Source: Carcharhinus amblyrhynchos | Lineage: Eukaryota | Assembly: GCA_965287045.1 (NCBI GenBank) | Contig: OZ336903.1 | Coordinates: 186,001 to 250,000, forward strand | Reading direction: 5' to 3' | DNA length: 64,000 nt | Part shown: piece after piece, positions 1,905 to 60,895 of the stretch | How positions within the stretch are numbered: position 1 is the first letter of the stretch | Layout of the letters: each line of letters opens with the position of its first letter | Notes under the pieces: generated by a model | Database searches by the model: none | Seen by the model: the letters and a program-made list of their open reading frames with translations, nothing else | What the model was told of the DNA's origin: nothing | Position numbers and translations under genes: made by a program

Positions 1905-2788
1905 TTATTTACAGATTAAGGGATTTTTCAATGCAATTTTCAACTGCTCTCTGAATTTCGTCTGTGTCACTGCATAAATACATGTATTTGTGCAGCAACT
2001 CAGGAGCTGCAACATGAAACCTAATTCCTGTACAAACAAATGCAGATACATAGATTCATATCCTAAATAATACATCCGCATCCATACTGAATGAAACATA
2101 AACACGGACCATAGTATAATGAAATTGGCCGAAATAACAAATAATAAAATGATTGATTTCCTTCGAGCCTCCATCTCTGGGTCTTTGGTACTCTCCCCAC
2201 TTTTCTGAGCCCACAGTCTTCTTCGGGCTTTGCTGGAGAGTAGAATGTGTCTAATGGAATAGATGTTAAGCAGCAAAATCAAGACAAAGGGAATTGCTGG
2301 AGTTAAAGTGTAATGAATAATCTCAATAATTCCCCAGACCAAAGAAGACATATCTCTGATGGGTACCTTACAAAACCAAGGTTGATTTCCCTGCCAATAC
2401 GTGTCTGCCTGCATAAAATACCAGGAAATATCCTTCAAACAGCTCAGTGCTGTCACTGTTACTAAAACAACTGATGCTGTTTTCTCGGTGCAATATTTTG
2501 TTTTCAGCTGCTTACAGCAAATGGCTACAAATCGATCGACAGTGAAAGTGACAGTGAACCAGACAGAACAGTCGGTGGCTGAATAAAGAAGGACGGCGTG
2601 AATGTTGCACATGGGAATGGACAGCAAGAAATGAAATAGCTCCCGAAAAACGATTGGAATTTGCCTCAATATGAGGTCGAATATAACAACCATTAGATCC
2701 GCCGCTGCCATGGCGGTAAGGTAGCGTGTCACACATTTAGAAAGACCACATTTTCCTCGGGATAGAATCACAATCGTCAGGATATTAA
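1905..2788 (-). CDS. GPCR-A exon 2 (end of TM1 to C-terminus)
   Basis: ORF 1905..2771 extended to the acceptor AG at 2789-2790; stop TAA at 1905-1907. Confidence 0.93.
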
Positions 2789-5700
2789 CTGTGGGGAAGT
2801 GAGAGAAATACAGTTATTCACAATCAGGCTCAAAGCAATATTACCACGTTGATTGAGTACTAATTTCACCGCCAAATATGGAGATACAAGGATTACACTT
2901 GATGCATACTGGTTGGCATTCAGCAAGAATTTCAGCAAGATTCCACATGGGAAACTCGTCAGTAAGTTCAGAAGACATGAGACCAAGACCACTAAACAAT
3001 TAAACAATGAAGGTACAGGAGTCGGAGTGTCATATTGAATCTAGTTCTTGTACTGGGAATCTGTGACAAGTGATGAGAAACAGTAATGCAAGTAGGCGCT
3101 TTACTGTTTTCAGTGAACATTACTGTTTACTGTTTGCAGTGCGGTAGACAGAGGGGAACCGGTGGATGCGATGTTTCTAGATTTTCAAAAGGCGTTTGAT
3201 AAGGTGCCTCACAAAAGCTTACTTCAGGTGGTTAGAGTGCACAGAGTTGGGGGTAAGATGTTAGCGTGGATAGAGGATTGGTTGTCTAATAGGAGGCAGA
3301 GAATTGGTGTCAATGGGTGCTATTCTGATTGGCGGTTGGTGACTAGTGGAGTGCCGCAGGGATCGGAGCTGGGGCCTCAGCTATTTACCATTTATATATA
3401 TGATTTGGAGGAGGGGGCTGAGTGTAGGGTGATGAAATTTGCTGATGACACAAAGATGATTGGAAAAGCAAATTGCGCGGAGGGTGTGGAAAGACTGCAG
3501 AGGGGCCTGGATAGGCTGAGCGAGTGGGCGAGGACCTGGCAGATGGAGTATAATGTTAGCAAGTGTGAGGTTATCAACTTTGGAAGAAATAATAGCAGGA
3601 GGTATGACTATTTAAAGGGCGTAAAGCTGCAGCATGCTGCGGTGCAGAGGGATGTGGGGGTCCTTGTGCTGGAGTCGCAAAAACCCAGTCTGCAGGTGCA
3701 GCAGCTGATCAAGAAGGCGAATGGGATGCTGGCCTTTATAGCGAGGGGGATAGAATATAAAAGCAGGGAGGTCTTGCTGCAACTGTACAGGGCACTGGTG
3801 AGGCTGCAGCTGGAGTACTGTGTGCAGTTTTGGTCGCCGCACTTGCGCAAGGATATATTGGACTTGGATGGAGTGCAGAGGAGTTTCACTAGGCTGATAC
3901 CGGAGATGAAGGGGTTGGACTATGAAGATAGACTAAATAGACTGGGTCTATACTCGTTGGAGTTTAGAAGGATGAGGGGGAATCTTATAGAGACATATTC
4001 GATAATGAAAGGGATGGATAGGGCACAGCTTCAAGATGTGGGGGGTGCAGTTTAGAACGGAGAGTGGGAAAGTGGAACTGATCCACTTCAGATCAGCCAT
4101 GATCTTATTGAATGGCGGGGCAGGCTCGAAGGGCTAGATTGGCTTAATCCTGCTCATAATTCTTATGTTCCTATGTTCTTATTAATTAATATACATATAA
4201 ACATTGAAGGTATGATTAATAAGGCCGCAGAAGACATGCAAATTTCTAATCAGGAAAGTTGTTAGGAAGATTACACGAACATACAGACAGACTGGCCAGG
4301 CCCATACATAGTCTACAACTTAATTTAAATTTAAGAAATGCAAACCAATACATTTTTGGTGATCGAACAAGGCAAGGGAATGCAGAGTAAATGACAAAAT
4401 GCTCAGAAGTACAAAGGGCCAGATGGAATGTGCGATGTAAGCACGAAAATTCGTAAGTCTGTTGTACAGGCAGTGAAGGGGATGCTGAGCTACATGGGAT
4501 ACTTGCCTTCATTATCCACAGGACATAATATAAGTCCATGAAAGGTATAATGGGGATAAAACACTCGCTGGGCTACGCGGAATCCCTAGAAAACAAAGTC
4601 ACCTACAGCCGAAAATTTAGTGATGACAACTCAGCCTTCAATGCCATTATCCCTCCAAAACTCATCACCAAACTCAGTGACCAGGGCCTCGGCTTTTTCC
4701 TCAGTGACCAAATCCTGAACGCCCCATCCAACGGCCACAATCAACAAGGAAAGGCAAAATCACCTCCCCAGTACCACCGTCAAAGCCAGTGCTCCACAGG
4801 ACTGTGTTCTCAATCTCCTACTCTACTCCTTATACATCTATGACTGCATGGCCAAAGTCCCCTCCAGTTTCACTGTCTATTTTGCTGATGATACCATCGG
4901 GTCTCAAGCAAAAAGAAGACATGGAGCAGGATTGAGACAGAGCATCTAGTGAACTGAGGTAATGACAATAATCTCTCTTTTAATGTTATCAAAATGAAAG
5001 AGTTTATCATCCACTTCAGGAAGTGAGAGAAGAATATGTCCCCTCTCCTCCTCATCAATGGGGATGAAGTACAAACAATCGTGATCTTCAAGTTTTAGGT
5101 GTCCAGATGACCAACAGCCTGTCATAATACCACCGCCCCCCCGCCCCACTAAAATAAAATCCGACATTTGAGTAAAGAATGCCGACCAACGCTTTTATTT
5201 TCTCTGAAGAATAAGTAAAGTGATATGTCACCGACTACGCTCACCAGCTTTTAGAATTGCAGTATAGAAAACAATCTTTCTGGTTTCATCGAATCTTGGT
5301 ATGGTTTCTGCTCTGTCTAAGAAAACAAGAAAGTACAGGAAATCTGAAATGTAGCCCAATCCATCACGCAAACCAGCCTCCCATTCATTGACTCTGTCTA
5401 TCCTTCCCGCTGCCTCGGCAAAGTACCTAGATTTAAGGACTTCACACATCCTGGACATTCTCTTCTCCATCTTCTTCAATCAAGAAAAATAGACAAAAGA
5501 TTGTGGTTACGAACCAACTGACTCAAAAACTCTTCTGTGTTGCCGTCAGAGCATTGAATGGAGCTGCTTGCATTTTACACCTTACATATTACTGTAGCAC
5601 TACATTCTGCACTCTCTCGTTTTCTTCTCTTGAGTGGCATGCGTTATCTACAGAGCGCACAAAAATGTTTCACCGGATGATAAAACATGCGACAATAGTA

Positions 5701-7376
5701 AATAAAATCAAACTTGGAGAACCGTGTGCCATTGTCTTTGCCACACCGAAAATCGCATGTGATTGCATTCCAAAACGTGCACTGGAGATTTTCCAGGGGA
5801 TTGTCTGTCGCAAGTATTTTTAGACGTGAAGACATAATGGTTAATCAGGGGCTGTTACCCTTGAAGGAAAGAAGGCTGAGCAGATGCTTCAATAAAGTAT
5901 GCTCAATCACGAGAGGTATAACAATTGTAGATCAGATGGAAATGTCACCTCGAATAGACGGGATAATTACCAGGGACATAGATGAAATAAATGCAGCATG
6001 AAAATTCGAAATTTGATGAAAAGCATTTTCAACAAGAGGACAGTGGGAATCTGGTGCCCGTTGCCCATATGGGTGATAGAGACGAACCCCATCAGGACAT
6101 TTATGAACCCGTTAGATGGGCATTTCAAACAACAGAACAAACAAAACTGCGGGCCAAGTGAAGTGAAATAAAATCATCATATATGTTTGATTGATGACTG
6201 ACACCGGCACAATGGGCCGAAGGGCCACCTTATTTTCCAATATTCTACTACCTGACAAATTGATTCGGATCCAAAATATATCAACAAAGTCTGGGATAAA
6301 AGTGGTATGGTTGAACTAGAACACGGGTAACAACTTGATTTACAACTGATAAATTGTTGGCAGAAGTGATTATGGACATCCGAGCATGGATGTAACAAAT
6401 CATGGGTTTATTTCCAGAAAGAGATGAGATGAGACTGGCAATGTTCAGAATGGTTATAGAGCTGGACATGGGCGGCCATGATACCGACACACATATGAGG
6501 TTGTGATACTTTGGATGCCAAATTAGCTCCGAGATTCTGACTGTGTGATCCATTCTTAGCGAAGAATGTTACGGCAGGCTTTCTGACCGTCATTGAATGA
6601 ACAGCTTTGAGATTATACAAAACAAGACTGAAGGAGTATCTGAACGTCTGCCATCACATACATCATAGTTAACTCAAATTCTGCCAGGGATCAGGGGTTA
6701 TACATTTACATGCACAGACTGGGGAAGGTGGGAATGATATCTATCCGCAGGCAAGATAAGCAGATTTTTTTGTGAAGGGTTTAACACTACGTTGTGTTTT
6801 TATATCTGTAATATAATGTTGATATTACCAAGATGCAATTAAGCAACATTTATAATTGAGAGGATGTGGAATTTAAACTCAGTTCAGTGTTAACAGGGAG
6901 ACCTCAGTTGTTGCCCTGGGAGAGGGCTGGATTCAGTGTGGCTGTGAGCTCAGATCGTGAGGTTAACTGAGGACAGCGCATACAAAATACAGTCAACAAT
7001 AAATCAATAGAATATTAAAGCAAAATGTGCGGATTCTGGAATCTGGGCAAAAACAGAAAATCTCACCAAGTCGGACAGCGTCTGTGGAGAGAGAAGAGAC
7101 AATATTCCGAGTCTGGATGTTCCGACGTCAGTAAAGACACAATCAATTCAGTTCAACATTGTTCATAAATCAAAAAAACGGTTATAACTACTTACGTGGC
7201 ACGCCAATGATCGCGAGAAATGGATAGTAACCAGCTTGAATGACTACAAGGATGCATCCGAGCCGCCATAACGGTGACATATTTTCGTAAAACCTAAAAA
7301 GAGAGTAAAGAGCCGCGGATAAAGATCTGTCCGATGCTATAACATTCCAGGCTGTTATATTCAGATTCTCATCCAT
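1905..7376 (-). CDS. GPCR-A: two-exon class A GPCR, GPR139/GPR142-related, 354 aa; join(7196..7376, 1905..2788)
   Basis: Exon 1 (ATG at 7376 in aaaATGG context, ending ...YYPFLAIIGVP, donor C|GTAAGT) is 181 nt. Exon 2 (acceptor ttccccacAG|TTAAT) is 884 nt. Total 1065 nt, in frame. Seven hydrophobic segments with AxADL, DRF, LWSV, NTCIY and helix-8 KFREQL. Confidence 0.9.
3133..4180 (+). mobile_element. CR1 LINE, 5'-truncated, with RT ORF2 fragment and 3' tail
   Basis: ORF 3162..4055 with LDFQKAFDKVPH, SGVPQGS.LGP.LF, KFADDTK, LEYCVQFWSP and SLEFRRMRG; tail tcttatgttcctatgttctt. Confidence 0.95.
4585..5712 (+). mobile_element. Decayed Rex1/Babar-like LINE 3' fragment
   Basis: Translation D.NSAFNAIIPPKLITKLSDQGL resembles Rex1 RT (DYSSAFNTIIP..L..KL..LG); tttgctgatgatacc (FADDT); ends aataaaatcaaa; absent from the paralogous intron. 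Confidence 0.65.
7020..7130. mobile_element. Penelope-like terminal repeat relic (counterpart at about 60525-60650)
   Basis: gcggattctggaatctg..aaaacagaaaat..cagcgtctgtggagagagaa, recognised from memory as a chondrichthyan PLE-derived repeat. Confidence 0.45.
7196..7376 (-). CDS. GPCR-A exon 1 (N-terminus with N-glycosylation sequons NIT and NMS, start of TM1)
   Basis: ORF 7188..7376; phase-1 GTAAGT donor after GVP; near-identical exon at 60715-60895. Confidence 0.88.
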
Positions 7377-8261
7377 TTTGTTTCACTTCCCAATCAGTTG
7401 TTCTCAGATTCTGATCCGCTGTTGAACCATTCAATCGACTGTCCTCAGATCCTCACCCGATGTTGTAAAATGCGAGTCTGTCGCACTCAGATTCCGAACC
7501 ATCCCTCATTCTTCGAACTATTAATAGGCGTGACAATCTCTCCAGAGGCACAGCTGGGTTCCAGGGAGAATGGCATTAATTACAGGTACTGAACAAACGG
7601 GTTTGGTTATCACCTTACAATCTATTTTGTACCAACATAAACAATGGTGGATAATGTATTCACTGGCAAACTGGGCCAATGTGAATTTATACAGATTATT
7701 TTAAAGGATGTGAGTGTTTGTTTTTAATGGAGAGATTAAAGGTTATGGAACTTGTGAATTCAGCCTGTGGGTCAAATGTTGCTGATAAAGCTCGAGAGGC
7801 CACAAATAAACGCAACAAGATTTTGTGTTTGTAAAGGAAATGTAATAAATGGAAATCATCACAAATATGTGAATGGAAAATTATTTGATGAACTTAGTTA
7901 AGTCACTATTATAGTACCTGACATGGCTGACAGGGAATGAGATGTTCATGTTCTGTGTCTGGGCTTCGCCAAATTGTGCAATTAAGACCAACATAAAATA
8001 ATTGTCACGGAAACAGCAATGTATCGATTCCCAGGCACTGTCCGTGAAGATGTGATTTTGACAATAAAAAGGGAAGATCAGAGGAATGGGTAAGGTCCAT
8101 TTTTCATATGACATCAGCATTGCTTAAATGATAAACAGTGAGCAGTTGGAGCTGTGCATCAAGAAAAACTAAAGGAAAAATAAGTTACGTTGGAGATAAT
8201 GGGAGATACGTGGTAAAAATATATCAGATTAATATATTTGTAATGACTTATTAGGTTTCTG

Positions 8262-8414
8262 AAAGACAGAGGAATTAAGGGTGATGGGGAGAGAGCGGGA
8301 AAGTGGAACTGATCCACTTCAAATCAGCCATGATCTTATTGAATGGCGGGACAGGCTCGAAGGGCTAGATGGCCGACTCCTGCTCCCATTTCTTATGTTC
8401 TTAAGTTCTTATGT
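8262..8414 (+). mobile_element. CR1 3' end fragment (similar copies at 4060-4180, 22655-22803, 61815-61965)
   Basis: ggaactgatccacttcaaatcagccatgatcttattgaatggcggg..tcttatgttct tail. Confidence 0.85.
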
Positions 8415-11400
8415 CTCAGCTGGAATGGTGCGCCTCATTCTAAATACAAATATATTGGAATAGCATATTTTTATTAGTCACATGTAAGGCTTACATTACA
8501 CTGCAATGAAGTAACTGTGAATTTTCCCTATGTGCTCGGTATATGTCGGTCGTGAATACTTCCTTCCAGCTGTGAGGTATGATATACAGGGAAGAAGCAA
8601 TGCGCTTCATTAAACGCTCTTAATTTATTCCACCATTGCTGATGTCAGTCAGGACCAATATTTGAGAGGTAGATCCCACACAAACTGCGATATTGACGCT
8701 GTCAATTGACATGACTGGTTTTAATATTTGACTTTGGTGCCTTTTCCCAAGGTCCTACAATCACTGCCAATTGCCATGATGGACACCACCTCAAACGCGG
8801 TGTCAGCACTTCGCTATTTCTACAGGTATATTCGGCATTCGTAAATGTTTGGAGCATTAACGTCTTTTATGTCTTTTGTGACTGACTCGCTGGGCAGGAG
8901 GTCACATTTATGCAGAAGTCTTCCATCCCGTGGCCATACCTGATCCTCCTAAGTTGTCTCGATATGATAATTCCCACTAAAAGTCTCAGATCTTCCTTTG
9001 TTAGAGTTCTGAATGTATGATTGATTTCCATTTGGCATAGACCCATCGCCAGCCAGAAGATTAGAACACAAAACAAAATGAAACTCTAGATCGCTATGTG
9101 TGGCCAGTTTTCCATAGCTATTGTGTTTGAGGGCAAGAATCTTAAAGAAGATAACAGGGATCTTCAGCAGGCAGTTAAGGAGGGAAACGTCATTTTGAGC
9201 TTTATTGCAAACGAGTTGGGTATTAAAAATTGGGAGCTTTTGTTGTAATTGCACAGGGTGTTATTGAGGCCTCACCTGGAAAGCTGCGCACACATTCGGG
9301 ACCAGACCTTAAAAGGGAGTCTTAACACTGGGGGCAATCCAAAGGAGTTTCTCAGGGAATGTCTCCTCATCCTTCCACATTCCAATGAGTACAAACACAC
9401 AACAGTTCCTCATGTGACAAACTCTTAACTCCTGGGACCATTCCTGTGAACCTCCTCTGGACCTTTCCCAAGACCAGCACATCCTTCCTTAGATAAGGGG
9501 CCCAAAACTGCTCACAATACGACAAATAGGGTCTGACCAGAGCCGTCTCACAAGTACATCGCTTGTCTTGTATTTTAGCCCTTGCTACGTGAATGCTTAC
9601 ATTACATTTGTGTTTCTAACTGCCGACTGAATCTGCACGTTAAGCAAATCTTGGTCAATAACTCCCCTTAATATAGTTTCCAATGGGGTACCATGAGCAT
9701 AGACATGGGTCAAGGGTGGAGGAGGAAAAACGCAATGTTAAGATGGTGGCGCGGGCTCGTGGGCCGAAGGCCCTGTTTCCCGTGTTGTGTTGTTCTTTGT
9801 TATGTGTTCTTTGTTCAAGTTTGTTTGTGTTTCTGATTTCCTGAGCAATCCCCATTTAGAAAGTAGTATATGTCTCCATTCCTTCTTCCAAAGTGCATGA
9901 TCTCACTTTTTTTCACACTGTATTTCACCTGCAATTTCTTTGTCCACTCTCCGAACCTGCACTCATCCTTTGATATAAGCTGTGGAATTTAAGTTGCTGC
10001 GCAAACCCACTCATTTCTGCGGTGAAACAATCGAACTTCAGTGAGCAGTTGAAGAGCATGTTTAAATATCCGATAACATCAAATATTGAATTAATTGACA
10101 ACCAAATGTATGAAATAAAATCAGCTTAAACATTCTGTGGTGCCAGAGGAGGCTGCTGGAAGACCGGGAAGTGAGGGCCTGGCGAATTAAGCATTTTCAA
10201 GGACCAGATAACGATGGACTGGAGGGAACAGAGAATGGGGACGTGAAGAAAATTCGGCGCAGACATGTTTCATCGAATACAAATAATGGCAGGAAATGGG
10301 GAAATGACAGCCCTTTAGTGGACCAGAAGCAGCGGTAAATAGAAATACCACTGAGCAGCAGGAAGAGTGCACTGGAAACTCTCGGATGATCTGGAATAAT
10401 TCCTCAGGTGGGATCTCACAGCGGGGCATGGTGAGGGGTGACATGCTGTTTCTACCAGAAAATTGACAGGAGGAATGTGGCGGGTCAGGAAGAGTTGACC
10501 AAAGGGTGAGAGCTGAGATCTGGAGAAATTGAGACAAAGAAGTCAGAAGGATAATTGAAACACGCTGTGAAATATAGGCTGGAAGATGATAGACACAGTC
10601 TCTTCTACACCACCTCCGGTTCCATTCCCAGCTCATCGTAGCTTCTAAGAAATAAGAGGAAACGAGTTGTTTAAAAAGCAAAATGTTGCAGATGCTGGAA
10701 ATCATGTTTTTTTCAATATGCCAGTCATCGTTTCATTTCGTAACTTGTAGAGATATTTGATGGAATCCGTGCCCTCTGAAATATCTGCCTGATCACTGAC
10801 AATCTCTATCTCTCCCCAGGCACTCGGGCCCCAATACAGACTGCGATCAGGTCTGGTCAAACCCAGGCCAGGGTCCAGGTGGACACACAGGCCTGCGGCC
10901 GAGGTTGAGAGCATTATTTTAGCTTCTGAAGGCCTCCACTATCGCATTGTTTTCTCTAGAACCGCCAACCCCAACGCACTGCTGCCCAGTCTCCGCTATC
11001 CACTCTCTACGGTCATTACCACAATCGTCCAGTTTTGTGATGAAAATCTCTCAGTCCCATTTACCCAACAGTCTCTTCACTCGCTGAGTGGTACTTGTTT
11101 CTGGACAGCTACAACACCATTTAAAAACAAATATTTGATTTTGCAACCCTCCATTTCTTCAATCCTCACTTTCTATGCAAACTTCTGCAGCCCGACAAAG
11201 TTACAGATGTCTCTCATGTCTTAGAACCTGCAAGACTGCTCCCCATCCCAAATCGGTAAATTACTCCATGACCCACCATCCCTCCAAATTTATATAGACT
11301 ATAATCTCACTTTACATTGCCAAATCGTGGCTCAAGACAATTTCCAAACGCTACCAGATGTGTCAGACAGCTCCTTAAGGCTCTACAAATTGCTTCAGGT

Positions 11401-12064: not shown

Positions 12065-12189
12065 GCCAATTCCAGGAATTCTCCAATCCACAGCGCCCAC
12101 TCTGAAAACATAAACAAGGACTGTGAGATTTAGAAAACAACTTTATCACGGCCAGGGACTTTGAATTTCACCATTCCTTAGAAAGACCG

Positions 12190-12480
12190 AAATTAAGGGG
12201 GGAACTGATAGAGGTGCACAAAATAATGAAGGGTCGAGATAGAGTCAACAGTGGAAGGCTTTTTCCTAGATTGGAGACAACTATCATATTGGGTCACGAG
12301 CTCAGGGTGAGGGGGGAGAAGTATAATTTGGATACTAGAGGGAGATTTTTCACACAGAGGGTCGTGGGGATATGGAATGCACTACCAAGTAAAGTGTTGG
12401 AGGCAGGGACGCTGGACTTGTTTAATGTTTACTTAGGTAGGCACATGAGTGAAACAGGGATGGAGGGTTATAGGAGACGG
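12190..12480 (+). mobile_element. CR1 ORF2 C-terminal fragment
   Basis: KIMKG.DRV...LFP, GRFFTQRVVGIWNALP. Confidence 0.88.
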
Positions 12481-12689
12481 TTTGAAAAAGGGTCAAAACC
12501 TCGGGACGATACTGGAAATGTAATGCTACATGTTAATGTCTTGTCTCTTTTAATCCGCGTGTGTGTCGGTCCACCTTGTTGTCTAACGAGGGGCATGCAC
12601 TCCGGGGTTGTGCGTGGGCTGCTCTTGGATATTTCAAGAGTGGCCTAGTACATTGCGTCGATGTGTGTGCTTAAATCTGGACCAGCAGA

Positions 12690-13389: not shown

Positions 13390-13456
13390 ATGCATCTACC
13401 AGTAGCTAAAGCTGAGAAAATATTCTATCCAACCATTGCTGTTATTGGTGTTCCTG
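13390..13456 (+). CDS. GPCR-B exon 1
   Basis: ATG CAT CTA...GGT GTT CCT G|GTAAGT; FYPTIAVIGVP is homologous to YYPFLAIIGVP of A and C. Confidence 0.82.
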
Positions 13457-16400: not shown

Positions 16401-19400
16401 AAAGATGGGTCAAACTTCAAATGTGTGGAAGTTCTTCATTCCATCAGGAGGCATTTTAAAACAGACCATCTCAGGATTGGAGGTTTTGGACGTCACACTT
16501 CCTGGAATGATATGAGAAGGGCCTGATTAGTGACTGTACACAGGATCCCCCAGCATCTAATCCGAAATCGTTTGTACCCTATCACATTTCAACACTCGTT
16601 TGCTGCCTCTGTCACTATTGGTTATGATCCTCCCTTTTCTTTCTCACTTCCACAGTGTACAACACTAGCCCCTCACCTCAGCAGCCTCTCCCCAATTTAT
16701 CACTTTCTCGCTCTCACAAACCAGAAAATGAAGATAGAGAGAGACAGAGAGAAGGACAGTCATAGAGACAGACAGTGAGGCATTCAATAAGACAGGTAGA
16801 GGGAGATAGAGAGACAGGCAGCGAGCGAGCACACCGACTATCACCACCACAGCAAACTGAATTCAAATATCCCCCATCACGTTTCATTTCACCACCGCAT
16901 TTATTTCACTGCCTCAGGCACAAGTTTTGTTCCACACTTTTCCCTGCTTCAAGTTAAGTGACTATGATTCTCGGCCAGAAGGTATTAGCTGCAGTTGATA
17001 AGGTTGATTTTTAATGTGACCTCACTATCGTTAATGCAGAGAATTCTGCAGATAAATTGTGCAGAGGAAGATCCAAATCACAGTGACAAAACCAACATAC
17101 AGCTCAGNNNNNNNNNNNNNNNNNNNNNNNNNNNNNNNNNNNNNNNNNNNNNNNNNNNNNNNNNNNNNNNNNNNNNNNNNNNNNNNNNNNNNNNNNNNNN
17201 NNNNNNNNNNNNNNNNNNNNNNNNNNNNNNNNNNNNNNNNNNNNNNNNNNNNNNNNNNNNNNTAATGTACAAACGACGCTGGAATATTGGTTGCACTGTA
17301 TAATTCCACAAGTAACAATGTGACATTGTCTGAATCTCCCTTCAGTCCGGGCAGGAAGTGTGAACTAACATTCTCAGTCCCATCTTTCTATTTTAAGACT
17401 TGAAAGACATTGCCCCAAATCTGGAGACTTCCCTTCATTCCAATCAAAAGCTGAAACTGCCTCTTAAAACTGAGAGAATCTTTCAAAACAAATTCGACAG
17501 CAAAACCCACATGGCACCATTAACAGTGTGGCGTGTCTTTTAACTTTGGAGAATGCTCTATCCTCCATCCAGCTTCCTGAGACAAACCGAATTACAGCCC
17601 GGTGGCTTTGTTCAGTATGATACCAGAAGGATCTGCCTCACCCCTCGGGTTTCCTCATTCTACCTCAAGATCTTGCTTTCTCCAGTTCTTACCGCACAAG
17701 GCAGAAGGATTTAAATGGAAAGAGAGAAGAAAATCTACTGAATTTGTATTAAAATGTCCGCCCCGTCTCCCCTGCCCAATCCCTCTTTGACTCCAGAAAT
17801 TGCCCACCTCCACCTTTCAGTTTTAGAAGGGGCTGCTGATTCCTTTAGGATTCCTTTTAAAATCACCCTCCCAGGAGGTTTCTCCTCATGTCAGACACTC
17901 TGAGGTAATTTCAATGTAGATGAAGCCAGTTAATGCACATTGGAGACCATCACATCTTGTGTATCTTTCGGTCCCTCACGACTTCAGCTTTGACCCTCCA
18001 GCCCCCTCAGCTTCCCTCTGCCCCTTCCCTTCTCACTATTTTTGAGTGATTTTCCTATTTAGGTAGATGTCCCTCTGCATCCCAATTTCTCCACCTATCT
18101 TTCCCAATCGTACACACTGTCATTGTATCAGTTTCTGTCTCTCTCACACAAGTATGTGCTCCGCGTTGAAATAAACAATGGAATAACTTGTTCACCCAGT
18201 GTGTGATAATCACAAATTGCTTTGTTTTTTTTGTGGAAATATTTCACTGATTAAAGGATTAAAACACTCAAAGAAGTTCGAGAGAGAGGGAAAAAAGGAG
18301 TGAGGTAGACAGATGTGGGGAGAGAGTGTATGGATATGAGATTGAGAGGACTATTGAATGAAGCTGAATGAGAGAGAAACCTGGAGATAGGGAATAAAGT
18401 TGGAAAGAAAGAAGGGTCAAGAAAGTGATAGATAAGGGAAAAAAGAGAAAGAAATAGAGACAGAGAAGAATGGAATGAGCGACAAACAGAGAAAGAATCA
18501 GGAGAAAAAAAAACAAATAGAAAAGCTGATGGGAGAGGCTAAATGGGGAATTAATTTGGCAAAGTTAAGATAAGGAGAAATCCTTATAGTGAGATCCAAG
18601 ACAATCAGCTCTACAGGCAGGGGGAGATATAAATCCGGGGTGGGCTCTGGTAATTCGTTGTAGGGAGGGATGGTTATTTTCTATTGCAAATCTCTGGCAT
18701 ATTTCTTTCCACTTTGGGCCGAATTGGGAAATGCATTAGCTTTTAATCAATCCTGTGAAGAAATGTTTTCAGAAATGCAATATTTCAGAAACATTTGCCT
18801 CATCAGAATTTGCAGAATGCCTCATTCAGAGTGAGACCTGTAATTCACAGTGTTATGTCCACCAACCCCTGCTGAACCAACATTGTTACATTCACTACTT
18901 TCCAGTTTGCAATGTTAATCTCTAACATAATTCCTCTAACAACACCAGCTCCCCAAAAACTTATCTGTCCATAGGGTTGATGCTGAAATCAGACAAGGAA
19001 AATGCTTATGCATAATTTTCCTGGTGCTTATCTCTTTTTCTCTGACAGTTAATATACTGGGAATTGTGATACTGAGTCGGGGAAAGTGTGGCCTCTCCAC
19101 CTGCACCACTCGCTACCTGATGGCCATGGCAGCGGCGGATCTACTTTTCATCATCATCAACCTCATTCTCAACTACATTAATAAACATTACATGCCATGG
19201 AATTTCCTGCACTTCACCTCTGCATGTTGTGTTAAACTTGTCTTAGGATCTGCAGCCAGAGACTGTTCTGTCTGGTTTACCGTCACTTTCTCTTTGGATC
19301 GAATTGTGGCCATTCGTTGCCAGGAACTGAAAACTAAATATTGCACCAGGAAAACTGCAACTGTTATTCTGGCAACAACCAGCATCTTGCTTTTTGTAAA

Positions 19401-19950
19401 AAATATCCCTTGGTACTTTACAATGGAACCCAGGTGGATAATTGGCAACGTGCAGTGGGACTGTCAGAAAAAGACAAGCTATTTCATTGATCGTGGTTGG
19501 GTTGTATTTCACTGGTTTGATCAGGTTTTAACCCCATTGCTCCCATTTGGTTTAATCCTGTTGATTAACGCTCTGACAGTCCAGCACATTTTAGTGACCA
19601 GCAAAGTCCGGAAGACACTGAAGGCTCAGGGTCACGGAAAGAATCACAGAGATCCCGAGATGGAGAGCAGAAGGAAGTCAATGATTTTACTCTTCAGCAT
19701 ATCCGGGGCTTTCATTCTCCTCTGGTCGGTCTACGTTGTATTTTTTTTCTACTCGAGAGTGAAAAGAAAAATTGACATCACTTCTCCTGATTACACATTT
19801 CAACAAGTCGGGTTTATGCTGCAGGATTTAAATTGCTGCACAAATACATTTATTTACACAGCAACTCAATCCAAATTCAGGGAGCAGGTTAGAATCATCG
19901 TGAAATATCCAGTTACATCAATTAAAAAATTACTGAAGAAACAAAACTGA
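13390..19950 (+). CDS. GPCR-B: two-exon class A GPCR, GPR139/GPR142-related, 322 aa; join(13390..13456, 19049..19950)
   Basis: Exon 1 reads MHLPVAKAEKIFYPTIAVIGVP then G|GTAAGT (67 nt, too short for the ORF track). Exon 2 follows tctctgacAG (902 nt). Total 969 nt, in frame, with the same intron position as A and C. The intron contains an assembly gap. Confidence 0.85.
16225..16373. mobile_element. Penelope-like repeat, internally deleted copy of the 36053-36367 element
   Basis: tcatgatgtggagatgccggcgttggactggggtaaacacagtaag...; short inverted arms remain. Confidence 0.7.
17108..17262. other. Assembly gap (N run)
   Basis: Run of Ns. Confidence 1.
19049..19950 (+). CDS. GPCR-B exon 2
   Basis: ORF 19024..19950 with ILSRGKCGLS, AAADL, DCSVWFTV, DRI, DPEMESRRKS, NTFIY and KFREQ shared with A and C. 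Confidence 0.93.
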
Positions 19951-21429: not shown

Positions 21430-22410
21430 GTAGCCTGCCCACTTAATCTCACTTGCCAGCACTTGGTCCATAGCCTTGAACGTTATGGCGTGTCAAGTAC
21501 TCATCCACTTACCTTTTAAAGGATGTGAGGCATCCCAATTCCACAACACTTTGCAATCCAGGGTTTTCCTGAAATCACTCCTGAGGCTCACACCACTCAC
21601 TTTCATCTCATGTTGCCTCGTAACTCATCCTTCAACAGGGCCACATTCGCTCCCTATCCAGCCTGTCCCAGTTTCTCATCATCTTGAACACCTCAGTCAA
21701 ATCAACACTCAGTCTTCGCTGCATCAGACAAAAGAACGCAAGCCTATCCAACATCTCTCTATAGCGATGTTGCCCATGTCCATCCTCGGCAACATCGTGT
21801 TGAATCTTTTCTGAATCTCTTCCAGCTCGATGACATCCTTTCGATAATGTGGCGATCAGAAAAGCACAGTCCTCCAGCTGTGCCCTCACAACATTCCTAT
21901 ATAACTCCATCATGAACTGTGTTTTTTTGTAATGCTTTCCCCAACCAAAAAAGACAAGTGGATCATACGCCTTTTTCACTACTTTATTTGCCTGTCTTTC
22001 TGCCTTCAGAGATTTATGGATAAACATACTCAGTTCCCTTTGTTCGTTGGGACTTCCCAGTATCAAGCCAATCATAGTAACGTTTCTTGTCAAATTACTT
22101 CTTTCAATGTGTATCACCTCACACGCTTCAGGGTTAAATCCTACCTGCCATTTATCCGCCCATTTGACCATCTTGTCTATGGGGGTGACTCATAATGTTA
22201 AAATGGCGGCGCGGGCTCGTTGGGACTCAGGGCCTGTTTCCCGGGCTGTGTTGTTCTTTGTTTGTTCTTTGTCTTGCCACAGCCCAAGATACTCGACTTC
22301 ATTGTTAACAACTTGGCCAATCTTTGCGTCTTCAACAAACTTACTGCTCCTTCTGTCCTCATTGTCATCTGTGTCTTTTACATAAATGACAAAAGATCGG
22401 CAGCATAACA
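21430..22410 (-). mobile_element. Decayed CR1 ORF2 fragment interrupted by a SINE tail
   Basis: KF.EDAKIG, WADKWQ..FN..CEVIH, MELYRNVVRAQLE, DLTEVFKMM. Confidence 0.85.
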
Positions 22411-24310: not shown

Positions 24311-46901
<22,591 letters not shown>

Positions 46902-50029: not shown

Positions 50030-51422
50030 CATTCAGCGCCTGACACCTGTCTGGAGTCACTCTGTCCTTTCAGATTCATTCTAACAGACCTGGCTGGGGT
50101 CAAACTGTCCTTTGAAATTCAGTGTCACAGGCCTGGTTGGATAAGCTGTGCCCTTTGACATTCAGTGTCATAGAACTGCCTGGATAAATTGTGTCCTTGG
50201 AGCTTCAGTGTCACAGAACTGCCTGGATAAACTGTGTCCTTGGAGATTCAATGTCACAGACCTGGCTGGGTAAACTGTGTCCTTTGAGATTCAATGTCAC
50301 AGACCTGGCTGTGTTCGAACTGTTACTTGAGATTCAGCGTCACAGGCCTGTCTGGGTTAATTCTGTCCTTTCAGTGTCAGTGTCACAGCCCTGGCTGTGT
50401 TTGAACTATTATTTGAGATGCAAATCTCATGCCTGGCAGGGTTCAGGCTGTTCTTTGAGATTCACTGGCATAAGCCTTTATTGCTTCACTCTGTCTTTAA
50501 ATTCAGTGTCACAGACCTGGCTAAATACACTGTGCCCTCTCAGATTCAGTGTTACAGGCCTGGTTCTGTTCACTCTGTCATTTCAGATTCAGTGTTACAG
50601 GTCTGGTTGTACTCACACTGCCCTCTGAGCTTCAGTGTCACAGGCCTGGCTGGAATCACTCTGCCTTTTGAGATTCAGTGTCACAGGCGTGAGTGGGTTC
50701 AATCTGTCCTTTGACAATCAGTGTCAGAGGCCGGGCTGGATTTACTCTGCCTTTTCAATACAGTGTCACTGAACTGGTTGGGCTCACTGTGTCCTTTTCA
50801 GTTTGAGTGTCACAGGTCTGGCTGTATACATTGCATCTTTTGACATTCAGTGTCGCAGGCTCTGTGCTCGAAATGTTATTTGAGATTAAAGCTCTCAGAC
50901 CTGACAGTGTTCACTCTGTCCATTGAGATTCAGTGTCACACGCCTGGTTGGGATCAATGTGCTCCTTGAGATTCAATGTTAGAGGCCTGGCTGGTTTCAC
51001 TGCGTCCTTTCTGATTCAGTGTCGCAGGCCTGGCTGGGATCTGTTTGCCTGTTGAGATTCAGTTTCCCAGGCCTGGCTGTGTTCAAACTGTTACTTGTGA
51101 TTCAATGTCACAGACCTGGTGTATACACTGTGCCCTTCGAGATTCAGTTTCCCTGGCCTGGCTGTATTCACTCTGCCATTTGAGATTCAGTGTTACCGGT
51201 CTGGCAGGATTCGTTGTGTCTTTTGAGATTCAGTGTCACGGGCCTGGCTGAGTTCGAAAATGTTATTTGAGATTGAGTATCACAGACCTGTTTGGGTTCT
51301 CTCTGTTCTTTGAGAGTCAGTGTCACAGGCTTGGCTGGGTTCACTTTGCCTTTCAGTTTCAGTGTCACGGGCCTGTTTGGCTTCACAGTGTCATTTGAGG
51401 TTCAGTGTCACAGGCTGGTCTG
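50030..51422 (+). repeat. 43-bp minisatellite, about 32 diverged copies (GAGATTCAGTGTCACAGGCCTGGCTGGGTTCACTCTGTCCTTT-like)
   Basis: ttcagtgt recurs at 50588, 50631 and 50674 (period 43) and throughout the array. Confidence 0.92.
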
Positions 51423-51685: not shown

Positions 51686-51689
51686 TAAA

Positions 51690-52665: not shown

Positions 52666-54210
52666 GCATCTGTAGATCCAGGACGGATAGGGCTGGAGGG
52701 GGAGGCAGGAATCATTGGCTGATCTGCTGTGGTCTTGTCCGTGCCCAGCTCGATCTGATCAGTGCAGCCCAACACACTGGAGAATGTTCGGTAGGAAATG
52801 AAGATTAGAAGTCTAACTAAAGTGTCATCTCCTTCAGAGGGTCACACACTGTATTCTAACAAACTGAACTGGATTACACTGAATGGGAAGTCATGTAATG
52901 TGACCCTCACAGACTTCATGAATGAAGTGCATTTTTTTAAGAGGGGTGGGGGGGTTGGGGAAATTAGTTCCAACTCCAGCCTGGTTGTTCCTTTAAACAG
53001 GAACTGATGTTTATCTCTGTGTATGTGTGACTGTGTCCCTGGGTACAGTTCCCAGAGAGTTGAAAATACTGCATCTCTCTCTCTCTCTCTACAGAGCTGC
53101 TGCTTAAAGACACATTGACAACATTTATCTGACGGAAACATCTCTCTCATTCGCTTCGTCTCCTCCCCCAATGAGTGCTTCTACTCTCAAAATAGTCTAC
53201 ACACTTTTTTTTGCAGTTCTGATCTGTGGTGACTCATTAACCATTAAACACAGGACACACACATTCAGACACCGAGACAGACAACAACAGAGGTTGTTTT
53301 GGAAATCAGAAATTGAATTGTAAATACAACAACAAATAACTTGCAAAAAAATTGTTTGCAAGCTGAAGCATAAAACGAACTTTGCACGAATCAGCAAAAG
53401 ATGCAAACCTGAAACTGCTGGAGTTTTGGATGAACAAATTGTATAATCCACATTCAGGCCTGGTCCCTCCCTGCCTGGGCAAGGCTGCAAGTTACTTTAA
53501 ACCCATTTTCCCTCAGCTCCCAGTATGGGTGATGTGAAGGAAGAGCCCTGGGGTAAACTGTTTGCCTGCTGCTCAATAACCCACCCACCTACCCACTCTC
53601 TCTCTCTCTCTCTCTGTCTTTCCCTCCCTGAAATTAAATTGTCACAATTCACATTGGGGTTTTCCTTCACATTTTATTGAAAGATGAAATATAGATAGGA
53701 ATGTTTTGGGGCAGAGAGAGGGGTGGGGTGCCAGGATTGGTAAGAACACTGGAGAGAGAGAGAGACAGAGAAATTCTAAACCCTCCATCCAAATATAAAT
53801 TCCTGGGGAAAGAGAGGGAGGAAAAAATAGAGTCACACAGCAGAGGAACGGGCCACTGAGCCCACCAGGTCTATGCTGGCCATCAAATCCCAATCTATAC
53901 TGCTCCCATTCCCCAGCACTTGCTGCAGAGCCTACGATGCCTCAGCGATTGAAGTGCTTGAATTTACCCGACCCCGTTTCAACTTGCTGTTTTCCTTCGA
54001 AACACTTTGTGGCCCGTCAGCAAGATATTGTTTCAAAAAAAACGTGTCCTCACTGTTGCAGTGCGGGCAAAGGCCCCAGGCCCAGTGTGTACACAGGAAG
54101 ATCCCACAGCAGCAGCAGCCGTGTGAACCTAGATCAGATGGGGCACAGTCCCTCCCATCACACCCTCACACTCTCATCTGCTGTGAGCCCCCTCCCCCAC
54201 TCAGTACCCT

Positions 54211-54251
54211 GAGTGTGTGTGTCTGTGTGTGTGTGTGTGTGAGAGACAGTG

Positions 54252-54303
<52 letters not shown>
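54211..54303. repeat. (GT)n microsatellite
   Basis: Direct reading of the sequence. Confidence 0.95.
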
Positions 54304-54540
54304 ACTTTCCAAGTTTGCAGAAAGTGTAGAACTTCATCTGAAAAAGAAACCAAACCATTTTAAAAATAAAACCTCTGCGGTGCGCAGCAAGATCCCTGAA
54401 TTTCCTGTCAGTTGTTTTAAACCTTCTTTTCTAATTTGGTAAATCTTTATACAGAGAGAGAGTGAGGCAGAGAGGGGCTGAGACAGTGAAATTCACCCCC
54501 TCCCCCCCCGGCACCCTCAGAATTGAATCATAACATGTAG

Positions 54541-54623
54541 GGCAGCACGGTGACACAGTGGATTAGCGCTGCTGCCTCACAGCTCCAGGGACCCGGTTTC
54601 CATTCCTGGCTTGGGGCACTGTG
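54541..54623 (+). mobile_element. SINE tRNA-like head fragment
   Basis: gggcagcacggtgacacagtggattagcgctgctgcctcacagctccagggacccgg. Confidence 0.75.
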
Positions 54624-55475
54624 ATCCTGTGTCTCTTCCCAATCCCTCGCTGCAACCTACACACCTCGCATCATGCCATCGTTTCCTGCTTTCCACTGTC
54701 TCTCCCTCCCTTTTTTTCACCACCCCTTCCCCGTCTGTCTTTCTCTCCCACCTTCCCTACCTGTCTTTCTATTTCTCTCTCCCCCACTTTACGTGTTTGT
54801 CTTTCTCTCATCCTTCTCCTCCCTCCCTGTCTTGTTTTTTTCTCTCGCCCTCCCTCCATCTTTCACTGATGTCTCTGTCTCCCACTCCCTGAACCTTCCT
54901 CTGCCTTTCTCTCTCTCTCTCTCGCCCCCCCTCCCCCATCGCAGCCATTCCCAAAGTAACCCGCACACTCTCGCCTGCTGTGAGTCCCCTTCGCTACTCT
55001 TTACCCCGTGTGTGTCAGTCTGTCTGTATGTGACATCCCAAATTTCCATAAATTCTTGAACTTCCTCTTAAAACTAAGCCAAACTTTTTATTAACAACAT
55101 TCCTGTAATGCACAGCAAGCTCCCACAAGGTGCAGTCAGCTGGGTTGAGGTAGAAGGTCCTGGTCACCCCATGCAGAACAACACACAGTTTACAGAATAC
55201 TGATCAGAATGCTAGTCTTTGCAGCTTACCTGCTATTCAAGTCTTAAAGATGCAGACAATGTGAGTGGAGATAACATTAGCATAGGGTAAAGAGATGTGT
55301 GATAAATCACCTCTTCCCAGGTATGGTCAATCACCTCTTTCTGCATGACAGGTATGTAAACATATTTCCCTTGTGTACCGGCTGTTTTGACTCATTTTTT
55401 CTCGTGTAGAAGAGATAAGACCCTATTATCCAACGCACTGAGATGTGATCCCATTCCCGATTGGAACTTGGATAT

Positions 55476-55812
55476 CATAGAATCCATTCCATATAACCCT
55501 GCACAACAGGAGAAAACCATTCAGCCCATCGAGTTTCTAATGACAACAATCTCACTTCGGCCTTATCCCCGTGACCCCACATATTTATCCCCCTAATCAG
55601 TCTAACCCACACATCCCGGGACACTGAGAGGCAATTTAACATGGTCAATGCATCTTACCCGCAAATCTGCAGACTGTGATAGGAAACCGGGCAGCCGCAG
55701 GTAACACATGCAGACACGGGGTGAACCTACAGGATCCACACAGACAGTAACCCAAGCCGGGCATGGAACACAGGTCCCTGGAGCTGTGAGGGAGCAGTGC
55801 TTACCACTGTGC
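55476..55812 (-). mobile_element. V-SINE
   Basis: Reverse head (tccctggagctgtgagggagcagtgcttaccactgtgc) and V-domain. Confidence 0.8.
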
Positions 55813-56219
55813 TAACTTATCTGCTAATATATTTAAAATAACTGAATCTAGCATGATTGTGTCAGGTTGTATCTTGAGATGTGAATATAGAGGCACTTTT
55901 GTTGTGTGTGCACAGCATCTGCAGCTGAGAGTCCATCTCTGCATGTTCTCAATGATCTTTGACAATTTGTATTTTGCCTGGAAAGCGAGCCAGCATTTAT
56001 TTCCTCTCGCCAAGACATTTCCTCCAAAAAAGTGTGTTTTTTTCTGTTTTTTTTAATGCTTCACGGAGTTTTTTTACTTTCCCGTTGAAGTTTTTTTTTC
56101 TTTTTCTATTTCCTTGCAGGGGTTCCATAACATGATAGATTCTGAGTAGAACAGTCACTTCGAATGCCTGCCTGGGTTCGGTACTAAGGGACAATTTAAC
56201 GTAGTCAGTGTAAGTTTTT

Positions 56220-56497
56220 GTTTAAAGTTTATTTATTACTCAGAAGAAAGGCTGAAACTAACAATAAGTTTGTAGTGAAATTCCACAAATCGCCACAGTG
56301 TGGCGGCGGTTCAGGTCAATGAACCGAACCATCATGTCTTTCAGAATGTGGAACGGAAGCGGGGTATACGGGGGGAAACCCATGCAGACACGGTGAGAAC
56401 CTGCGGGCTGCACACAGAAGATGATACAAGCCAGGAATAGAACCAAGCCCCTGGAGCTGTGAGGCACTGCTGCTAAACGTGTCATCGTGCCGTCCCA
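56220..56497 (-). mobile_element. V-SINE, decayed
   Basis: gggggaaacccatgcagacacggtgagaacctgc reverse V-domain and head. Confidence 0.7.
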
Positions 56498-56775
56498 TTT
56501 TTTACATCTCGGCCAGCACATTCTAACAGTGAGATTTACCCTTCTCTCTTGCCCAGGGGCAGGATATTCCTTCCCTCCGTTACTGTTCATGATGTAGCAC
56601 ACCAAGTTATCCACACCACTGATGTATACCCACATACCCCAAGATGCATTTCATACCTTAGCACCACCTCCGATGCTATGTAAGCAGCAACTCTTCCCTC
56701 CCTCTTATGTACCTGCGATGTTGTCTCTCCATTCAGCAGTTTGCCAGGAATAGGTCGTCCAATCCTCCCCAATTG

Positions 56776-57078
56776 GGGCGGCACGATGGCACAGTGGTTA
56801 GCACTGCTGTTTACAGCGCCAGGGACTCGGGTTCGATTCCAGGCTTGGGACAATGTCTGTTTGGAATCTGCACTTTCTTAGCTTGTCTGCATGGAATTTC
56901 TCCGAGTGTTCTGATTTCCTTCCATACTGGGAAAGACGGGCTGGTTGGGTGCTTTGGTCATTCTAATTCTATTCTGGAGTGTAAAGGAACAGGCACCAGA
57001 GTGGGGTGTCTGGCGGATTAACACAGTAACTCCATTGCAGTGTTAATGTTTGCCGATTCCTGGCGCTAATTAATAAAC
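56776..57078 (+). mobile_element. V-SINE (counterpart of 1120-1402)
   Basis: gggcggcacgatggcacagtggttagcactgctg..gggttcgattcc with A- and B-box-like sequences. Confidence 0.8.
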
Positions 57079-57571
57079 CTTATGAAACGCAGCAATATCA
57101 CAACAGACAAAGCACATGTAATATCGGCCCAGTTCCTTGCTGCAGATGTTACAACAGACTGTTTTCCTGCAACATCAACTTCATATCCAATATCCATATC
57201 CAATAGTGCACCACGAATTATCAGCCATGCTATAATATTAAATGTTAATCCATTCTCTTGATGCACCTGGTATCACTTCAAATTCCCGACGCCACGGAAT
57301 TTATTCGATCAAAACGTCAAAACTGAGGAACCTCATATATTTTTCTGGTGTTTCTGGTTACCTGGCATTCATATTTCACTTCCTGAAGCTATTTTCTACT
57401 TATTTTATGCCCAATTGGAGACTATCAAATCTTAGTGTCTTCTAATAAGAATGGGGCCTCACTATGCCTGAGAAAATTAAAATCAGCCTCGAGCCAACAT
57501 TCAGAACAGCAGCACATACTGATCATTACATTTAACGCAATTGTTTTGATTCCGTTATGCCCGTCAATGAA

Positions 57572-58452
57572 TTACAGATTAAAGGGATTTTTCAATGTAT
57601 TTTTCAACTGCTCTCTGAATTTTGTCTGTGTCACTGCATAAATGCAAGTATTTGTGCAACAACTCAGAAGCTGCATCATGAATCCCAATTCCTGCACAAA
57701 CCAATGGAGATACATGTATTCATATCCCAAATAATCCATCCGGTTCCATATCGTAAATAGCATAATCACCGACCATAATATAATGAAATTGGCTGAAATA
57801 ACAAACAGTAAAATGATTGATTTCCTTCGAACTTCCATCTCTGGGTCTCTGGAGCTCTCCCCACTGTTGTGAGCCCGGAGTCTTCTGCGGGCTCTGCTGG
57901 ACAGTAGAATGTGTCTGACGGTGAAAACATTAAGCAGCAAAATCAGGACAAAAGGGACCAGAGGGGTTATAATATTATGAAGGAACTCAATTGATCCCCA
58001 GACCGAAGAAAACATATTCTTGATATGTACTGTACAAAACCAAGGTCGGTTTCCCTTCCAATACTCGTCTGTGAGCATAAAATACCAGGACATGTTTTTT
58101 AAGCAACTCAATGTTGTCACTGTCCCTAAAACAACAGTTGCCATTTTCTCAGTGCAATATTTTGTTTTTAGCTCTTTGCAGCAAATCGCTATAAATCGAT
58201 CGACAGTGAAAGTGACAGTGAACCAGACAGAACAGTCAGTGGCTGCAAAAAGAAAGACGGCGTGAATGTTGCATGTGGGGATGGACAACAGGAATTGAAA
58301 TTGTTCCTTAAAAACGATTGGAATGTGCCTCAATATGAGGTCGAATATAACAACCATTAGATCCGCTGCTGCCATGGCGATAAGGTAGCGTGTCACACAT
58401 TTAGAAAGACCACATTTTCCTCGGGACAGGACCACAATTGTCAGTAAATTGA
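57572..58452 (-). CDS. GPCR-C exon 2
   Basis: ORF 57572..58435 extended to the acceptor at 58453-58454. Confidence 0.93.
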
Positions 58453-60895
58453 CTGTGGGGAAGTGAAAGAAACGCGGTTACTCACAATCAGGCTGAAAGT
58501 AAAATTACCACATTAATTGAGTACTAATTGCATTGTCAAATGTGTTGATGTAGGGCATTGCAGTTGATGCATTCTAACTGGATTTCAGTCAGGATTTTGG
58601 CAAGATCCCGCACGGGAATCTGATCAATAAGTTAAAAATACATGGTTAGAAGGGCACGCGACATACTAGAAAGGAATATGCAGGAGTGAGAAGATCATAT
58701 TTGAAGCTGGTTCTTTTACTGGAAACTTGCGTGCATTGGTGTAAAATAATGATATGTGCGGGCTCTTTGCTGCTTGTAGTGAACGTTAATCATGTTCGCC
58801 TTAACAGTGAAGGTATGAACTTGAAGTTCACAGAAGGTATGCAAATTTATAATGGGGTCAATCGTGAGGAAGATTACAGAATCATACAGACGGGTTGGGA
58901 AGTTTGATAAACCAGTGGCAACTTTAATTTAAACTTGGCACGCCCGAACAGACGCATTTTTGCTTTCCAACAAGGCAAGAGAATGTACAATGAACGACAG
59001 AATGCAGGAAGTACAAAGATCCAAATGAAAGGTGTGGTGTATGTAGGAAGATACACAAGGCTGTGGCACAGGTTGTTAAGAGGGCGCCTAATTTATTAGC
59101 CATGGAAGAGAGATTTAGTGGAGGGAGGTATGATTGGGCTATCTAAAACAACCATTAGCCCACAAATGGAGAACGGTGTGCAGTTCTATTCGCCATGCTG
59201 GGCGGAGCACGTGATTGCATTCCAGAGGGCGCTGTAGCGACTTTCTAGGAGATTGCTTGTGTTAATTCGTTTCAGACATGAAGAGAGAATGAGTAGGCTG
59301 GAATTTTTATACTTCCATTAAAGTAGGTTGAACAGGTACTTCACTAAATTTGCAAAATCGTGAGAGGCAAAACACTTGTAGATCAGAAGGAAATGTCACC
59401 CCAAGTAGTGGGGCCAATTACCAGGGGCATAGACTAAAGGAATGAAGCTGAATACCTTTAATGCCGTGGATTCGATGTAAAGCGTTTTCACCAGAAAGAC
59501 AGTGGGAATCTGGAACCCGCTGCCTATGTGGGTGGCAGAGGTGGAAACATTCAGACCATGCATGAAGTATTTAGACGGTCACTTCAAACAGCACATCAAC
59601 CAAGGCTATGGGGAAAAAGGCGATAATTGAGATTGCAATATACAGTTGGCTAATGGCTGGAGGAGGCATAATTGACCGAAAAGCCACTTTGTGTTCTAAT
59701 ATTCTATGATCTGAATAATTGACCGGGAGCCAAGATATATCAGCAAGATCTTGGATAACAGAAGACATGCGTGAGTTAACACACAGACCTGATCTAGGAC
59801 TCTGATATTTTGTATGCAAGTTTGCGAATGGTTAAAGTCGGAGTGTTTTCAAATATCCAGGGATGGATGTTAAAAAAATAACTTCAAGCAACAGATGAGG
59901 TGAGACAGGGAAATGGCACAGTTCAGAGATCTTACAGTGTTGGACATGAACAGCTATGGTCATGGGACACATGACAGGTTGGGTGATATTTTGGATGCCA
60001 GATAGGCACTGAGATTCTGACAAAGTGATGCATCCTCGGCACACTTTCAAAGATGTTACGGCAGGCTTTCTGACGGTGGGTGAATGCACTGTTTTTGAAC
60101 ATACGAAAAAATTGAAGGAGCTAAACGTTTTGCAGAATGTGCATGTTTGTTCTCTCAAATTATTCCAGGGAACAGGAATTATGCAGTTAAATGGACAAAT
60201 TGGTGAATGTGGGAATGTTATCTCGCCGCAGGGAAGAGAAGCAGAGCGTTTTGTAAAGGGTTTAACGTCACGTTGTGTTTATATATACACAATACAATGT
60301 TGATTTTGCCAAATGCTATTTAGCGAAATTGATGATTGAGATGATCTGGGATTTAAACTCAGTTCAGTGTCAGAGGGGGGGACCTCAGCTCCTGCTCTGC
60401 GACAGGACTGGAATCAGTGAGCATGAAAGCACAGATTGTGAGGATAACTGAAGACAATGGATACAGTGTTCCCAAAATCTAACCCTAAACCTACACCTAA
60501 CCCAATAATTCAATATATTGTTAAAGGCAAATCTGTGGATTCTGGAATCTGAAACAGAAACAGAAAATGCTGGGAAATCTCAGCAAGTCTGGCAGCGTCT
60601 GTGGGGAGAGAATAGATCCTACATTCCGAGCCTGGGTGATCCATCGGCAGGAAATACACAAACACTGTAGTTCAACATTGTTAATAGAAATAATGAATGC
60701 TTATAACTACTTACTTGGCACACCAATGATCGCGAGAAATGGATAGTAACCAGCTTGAATAACTTTAAGGATGCATTCGAGCCGCCATAACGGTGACATG
60801 TTTTCGTAAAAACTAAAAAGATCGTAAAGAGCCCCGGATAAAGATCTGTCCAATGTGGTAACATTCCAGGCTGTTATATTCAGATTCTCATCCAT
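57572..60895 (-). CDS. GPCR-C: two-exon class A GPCR, paralog of GPCR-A, 353 aa; join(60715..60895, 57572..58452)
   Basis: 181 + 881 = 1062 nt in frame; donor A|GTAAGT, acceptor ccccacAG|TCAAT; about 78% aa identity to GPCR-A exon 2 by hand count. Confidence 0.9.
60715..60895 (-). CDS. GPCR-C exon 1
   Basis: ORF 60707..60895; phase-1 donor after GVP. Confidence 0.88.

Follow-up and report, generated by a model that had tools for sequence, protein, structure and literature searches.

A very large shark-and-ray family of class A receptors, sister to GPR139 and GPR142, with a possible chemosensory role

Three receptor genes in the window

The stretch of DNA analysed here (the window) comprises 64,000 nucleotides of the shark Carcharhinus amblyrhynchos, bases 186001-250000 of contig OZ336903.1 (contig 34) in a genome of 2.92 Gb (assembly GCA_965287045.1). 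It holds three intact two-exon genes for class A G-protein-coupled receptors (GPCRs), termed A, B and C, which are members of a shark-and-ray receptor family of more than 1,000 copies. Gene models were built from six-frame reading and splice-site checks (Table 1). The encoded proteins have 354 (A), 322 (B) and 353 (C) amino acids, and the introns measure 4,407, 5,592 and 2,262 nt, each bounded by GT..AG, in phase 1 and placed after a GVP motif. A and C are 79% identical to each other, while B shares 49% with A and 50% with C. The Pfam domain 7tm_1 matches all three proteins, and the structure predicted for B is that of a seven-helix receptor (predicted local distance difference test score, pLDDT, 85). 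Along with this domain and fold, the class A residues D2.50, DR3.49-50, P5.50, W6.48 and Y7.53 are present. Position 6.51 is F in A, Y in B and I in C, and 6.50 is V. Cysteine 3.25 occurs in all three; among 47 aligned family members, the disulfide pair between transmembrane helix (TM) 3 and extracellular loop (ECL) 2 is kept at its two positions in 46 and 45, the ECL2 cysteine in 45. The original prediction, made from the letters of the window, had named three intact paralogs with one phase-1 intron after GVP, seven signature patterns, F/Y/I at 6.51 and both cysteines, and each of these was recovered in all three proteins, with the counts just given for the cysteines.

A fourth copy of the family survives as a degraded remnant with in-frame stops upstream; neither it nor the SRCR gene described below had been named in the original prediction, and the upstream block before gene C falls outside the range which that prediction covered. 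Separately, the intron of gene A contains a remnant of a LINE reverse transcriptase on the opposite strand (3117-4055, plus strand; Pfam RVT_1).

Table 1. Features of the window, in window coordinates (PWM, position weight matrix; ORF, open reading frame)
Feature	Position	Strand	Basis
Gene A exon 1 (ATG to GVP, phase-1 donor)	7196..7376	-	splice-site check
Gene A exon 2 (from the end of TM1 to the stop codon)	1905..2788	-	ORF, Pfam
Gene B exon 1 (short N-terminus)	13390..13456	+	splice-site check
Gene B exon 2; subfamily under positive selection at extracellular sites	19049..19950	+	
Gene C exon 1	60715..60895	-	splice-site check
Gene C exon 2	57572..58452	-	ORF, Pfam
Degraded TM7/helix-8 remnant, fourth family copy	9974..10105	+	tblastn E 1e-5 vs gene B residues 278-321
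Upstream block conserved in the family, ahead of gene A	7561..7614	-	PWM from other loci, score 47.2
Upstream block conserved in the family, ahead of gene C	61080..61133	-	PWM score 46.9
CD163-like membrane SRCR gene, 7 SRCR exons plus TM exon at ~32413-32529; signal and tail exons unmapped	32413..41351	-	

A large family beside GPR139 and GPR142

The copy number of the family is far from small. An exact 23-base DNA pattern from TM3 matches the genome 1,220 times (control 0) and an independent TM7 pattern 1,296 times (control 8), counts that haplotype duplicates on small contigs may inflate. The TM7 pattern is carried by 41 of 60 TM3-pattern loci, and the overlap of both patterns yields an estimate of about 1,900 copies (1,600-2,300). 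Exon 2 is unbroken in 44 of these 60 loci and broken in 16, in a sample drawn from 100 listed TM3 matches on contigs 4-13 only and thus not random. With the intact share estimated at 60-84%, the intact family genes in this genome are roughly of the order of 1,000-1,400. On contig 33, about 49 near-identical upstream blocks, described below, follow each other at a spacing of about 60 kb between 19.6 and 22.5 Mb, with a family gene downstream in seven of seven sampled cases; this array is very young, and further young, near-identical arrays lie on contigs 34 and 52. The deepest-branching clade forms a dense array on contig 41 (0.25-4.2 Mb, loci L203-L214, about 95 listed matches); it keeps Pro6.50, lacks the DCSVW motif and carries the TM3 motif in none but the TM7 motif in all of ten members. 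Deep subfamilies with 42-50% identity remain intact and recur in other sharks and rays. With a cut-off of E 1e-10, a protein search returned 1,496 clusters, and the named matches among the best 120 are all from sharks or rays, nearly all of them called 'probable G-protein coupled receptor 139'. Similarly, a query taken from the deepest clade found sharks and rays alone among the named entries of its best 120, in this case also under the automatic names opioid-, melatonin- and C5a-receptor-like. The family is real, very large, functional, diversifying and misnamed in databases, and the expanded birth-and-death family foreseen in the original prediction is borne out by more than 1,000 copies in this genome, intact as well as broken, and by the occurrence of the family across sharks and rays.

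Taken at face value, the database names would make A, B and C orthologs or recent duplicates of GPR139 or GPR142 that sense tryptophan and phenylalanine. In favour of this, GPR139 is the closest structure in the PDB by both sequence and fold (profile E 5e-17; next 4e-12), the intron is the same, and A and C retain F/Y3.33, H5.42 and W6.48. Against it, the genome has its own GPR139 and GPR142. The GPR139 motif has one match, in a gene that shares 99% identity with a shark GPR139 and 87% with the human protein. GPR142 is represented by one gene, on contig 21, the other matches listed scoring far lower. Exon 2 of A, B and C is only 29-32% identical to that of the genome's GPR139. In a rooted maximum-likelihood tree, the family (support 100/99) is sister to GPR139 plus GPR142 (100/100) and shows one-to-one orthology with neither. 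This tree has 42 rows, namely 22 family members, six GPR139, five GPR142 and an outgroup of nine shark aminergic and peptide receptors, with no invertebrate or bony-fish family rows. The approximately unbiased (AU) test rejects a grouping of the family with GPR139 alone (p-AU 0.003), and R6.51, N7.39 and E3.32 are replaced. Because of the separate single loci, the tree and the AU test, A, B and C are not GPR139 orthologs, as had been proposed from their motifs; the orthology reading is refuted and keeps a barely perceptible probability. The intron nevertheless ties the groups together, since the genome's GPR139 and GPR142 both carry it in phase 1 at the same TM1 position, as the original prediction had stated for human GPR139. 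This common intron and the clade support versus other class A receptors place the family in a superclade with GPR139 and GPR142.

Compared with these relatives, both class A orphans (PDB 7vug and 9m42 for the Trp/Phe-responsive GPR139), the family likewise has no Pro7.50, and in place of single conserved genes it consists of more than 1,000 diverging copies. It keeps the TM3-ECL2 cysteine pair that GPR139 lacks, has lost the R6.51 and N7.39 anchors and possesses a long intracellular loop 3 with a DPEME motif; the hallmarks of GPR139 (WAPR with R6.51, N7.39, no cysteine pair) are absent. For GPR139 agonists, F3.33, H5x43, W6.48 and N7x38 matter, and R6.51 makes contact in a model, its mutants having failed to reach the surface (PMC5430874). 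With pocket numbering taken by offset from anchor residues, A and C preserve the aromatic floor and the histidine and replace R6.51, N7.39 and E3.32, and in B residue 3.33 and the histidine are replaced too. The proposed loss of the polar anchors that serve GPR139 for Trp/Phe therefore stands. 'Rewired motifs', the heading under which these features had been announced, overstates the case: the motifs are present, but NPxxY is found in none of 120 GPR139/142 homologs (118 have NF.LY), so its loss is common to the relatives, and the cysteine pair is the general class A state. The loss of Pro6.50 holds for A, B and C and fails as a family-wide trait, this proline being retained in the contig-41 clade, in locus L211 and, in other species, in 17 of 239 homologs of the family.

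The neighbourhood of GPR139/142 also includes orphan clades of fishes. In the survey PMC6504862 (Rinne et al.), GPR210A/B and a third coelacanth/gar set are filed under GPR139;GPR142 in bony fishes, with few genes, and the word 'shark' occurs 0 times; these clades are possible bony-fish relatives of the family. PMC8514136 places protostome MIP/sex-peptide, FMRFamide, proctolin and myosuppressin receptors and the nematode Srw receptors with GPR139/142, and the protostome relatives are peptide receptors. Look-alikes of the family in the Atlas include Srw-type and echinoderm clusters (0.94-0.96).

Variability, upstream block and neighbouring genes

Across the 47 members, the ligand face varies and the inner face is fixed. 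Entropy amounts to 2.04 bits at 30 pocket positions versus 0.66 at 21 G-protein-side positions (p 6e-7). The invariant D3.37 is no evidence in this context, because the sample was picked by that motif. Across four sets, the ratio of nonsynonymous to synonymous substitution rates (dN/dS) is 0.32-0.65 for the whole exon, which speaks for retained function, 0.26-0.40 for the inner face and 0.38-0.91 for the outer; one copy with an internal stop (L022) was excluded from the codon tests. In 29 B-type genes, model M2a improves on M1a by a 2dL of 172 and assigns 13.7% of codons to an omega of 3.5. Of the 21 sites with a posterior above 0.95, 19 are extracellular, chiefly in ECL1 and ECL2 (Fisher p 1e-6). 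Both models were run with code of our own on a fixed topology and with no recombination screen. Loop-centred change of this kind would suit large ligands better than small odorants, and it agrees with GPR139/142 having peptide receptors among their relatives.

Upstream of A and C lies a conserved block of about 50 bases. In a sample of 29 genes from other contigs, 10 have it, at a distance of 230-450 bases ahead of the exon-1 donor, exon 1 having been called in 31 of 40 upstream regions and two low-score calls dropped. A pattern for its 25-base core has 305 matches genome-wide (control 0), and each of 20 sampled matches is followed by a family gene in the same orientation. Its elements are what we take to be forkhead-like, homeodomain-like and weakly O/E-like sites. 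O/E-like words occur in 4 of the 29 promoters and 0 of the introns; a strict O/E pattern has no site in 11 upstream regions of contig 34. The block is regulation shared within part of the family and gives no pointer to a tissue. Weaker copies in the opposite orientation (plus strand) sit about 200 bases beyond the main block, at 7811-7864 before A (score 15.5) and 61363-61416 before C (16.7).

Between B and C lies a gene for a membrane protein with SRCR domains, whose closest solved protein is CD163 (score summed over CD163's nine domains). Its 36 best matches (at least 75% identity) are all on contig 34 between 0.16 and 2.05 Mb, the interval that also holds the 13 receptors of the A/C clade, and in the first 450 kb four of five SRCR genes have a family gene of the same strand 13-22 kb upstream of them. 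Receptor and CD163-like gene have been duplicated together, an association that is new here and may be passive; the SRCR genes of this interval are possibly a shark scavenger-receptor array in their own right. On contig 7, a second group of SRCR genes coincides in part with a cluster of the family. Of 423 SRCR candidates, the 150 that were scored include none in the family clusters on contigs 9, 13, 33, 39, 41 and 52. A degenerate 43-base minisatellite of 32 copies (window 50045-51413) recurs in the paralogous cassettes.

Possible functions of the repertoire

We tentatively favour a chemosensory repertoire and rank immune or barrier sensing next. Each receptor would read a different outside ligand, probably of peptide size, the shared G-protein interface would signal into a common downstream pathway, and expression is predicted in sensory cells dispersed through the nose, mouth, gills or skin. 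The case that these are overlooked chemical sensors comes from the more than 1,000 copies, the distinctness from GPR139 and the fast evolution of the outer face in one subfamily. The OR, TAAR, V1R/ORA and V2R repertoires are likewise large, clustered birth-and-death families of short genes with a variable outer and a fixed inner face. The present family differs from them in its unrelated lineage, its coding intron in TM1 and the lack of an upstream block in common with V2R genes. Birth-and-death GPCR repertoires are known as a kind, and the lineage of this one is new.

Known smell-receptor repertoires of sharks and rays are reported to rank with the smallest in vertebrates, with about 32 V2R and a handful of OR, TAAR and ORA genes in catshark (PMC11979771); the main text of that study contains no 'GPR', and no GPCR appears among its 50 top olfactory genes. 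Our genome has about 33 V2R-type loci, clustered on contig 3, and the intact family genes amount to some 40 times that number. Judging from sequence, and with a little more reserve than for the chemosensory reading itself, sharks and rays may carry a further chemoreceptor family that matches the mammalian odorant receptors in size, stems from a GPR139-related peptide-receptor lineage and has been hidden by its automatic annotation. A literature search, conducted largely without subscription papers and judged by its listings, found no published description of the family, and a search of the shark olfactory transcriptome literature found none either. Among supplements, that of PMC13200729 has solely a true GPR139 row, that of PMC13188829 nothing on the family and that of PMC8455134 one GPR142 orthogroup label. 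Of six runs mapped to gene C, four cover intron and exons alike, and the joints listed, with 89 more beyond the listing, include none between exon 1 and exon 2; this speaks neither for nor against expression. Three Logan proteins showed no clear exon 1.

Several results weigh against a chemosensory role. TM positions of the outer half that do not line the pocket are as variable as the pocket (2.06 bits, p 0.36, same 47 members), dN/dS in the pocket is just 0.36, 0.20 and 0.19 in three of four sets and does not exceed 1 in the fourth, and in the A/C clade (13 genes) selected sites make up 0.8%. The upstream block was found in just those 10 of the 29 sampled family promoters, with none before gene B (score 5). 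Across 200 kb of the V2R cluster the block is missing (best score 11 versus 46-47 at A and C), and eight V2R upstream regions are without a common block of such kind. Its strongest element is forkhead-like and not olfactory-specific, and bare words of this type show no excess in promoters (27 of 29, introns 22), nor do homeodomain words (21 versus 21). Finally, immune-type SRCR genes are interleaved with the receptors, which raises the immune alternative slightly.

According to that alternative, which we consider unlikely on balance, leukocytes or epithelial sentinels would detect microbial or damage peptides, by analogy with formyl-peptide receptors and MRGPRs. Positive selection focused on extracellular loops, as at host-pathogen interfaces, would fit, as would the CD163-like genes co-duplicated with C-type genes on contig 34, the second overlap on contig 7 and the want of a block in common with V2R promoters. 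The SRCR link is local, however, most family clusters having no such gene among the candidates scored, and a neighbour can be dragged along when segments duplicate close to the end of a contig. Nor does SRCR proximity indicate a tissue, because another SRCR cluster adjoins the V2R genes on contig 3 (137.9-138.5 Mb). More than 1,000 genes would also go well beyond the known immune GPCR families. Endogenous or social peptide receptors, acting in gonad, gamete, gut or nervous tissue in self or mate recognition, seem rather improbable. The peptide-receptor ancestry and the disulfide and ECL2 hairpin retained in the predicted model are consistent with them, but such signalling is generally known to need more than 1,000 receptors only seldom, and no expanded ligand family to match them came to light, though no search was aimed at one. 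Expression outside the nose, which PMC11979771 reports as frequent for catshark V2R and OR genes, is a further point in their favour. Slightly less probable again is mostly genomic drift, in which a duplication-prone two-exon unit would have multiplied on small chromosomes and near the ends of others, and few of the copies would have a task of their own. The young arrays, the broken quarter of the sample (16 of 60), long segmental duplications and small contigs that may be haplotype duplicates would agree with drift. It is opposed by the low dN/dS of the inner face in all four sets, the deep subfamilies kept intact and shared among sharks and rays, the spatial bias of the selected sites and an upstream block conserved across subfamilies.

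If expressed in nose or skin, the receptors would explain a good sense of smell in sharks despite the small number of receptors known; if expressed in leukocytes, they would constitute an unusually large innate sensing system. Elsewhere in the window, two further remnants of LINE reverse transcriptases, judged by eye, lie at 12127-12648 (plus strand) and 21632-22189 (minus strand).

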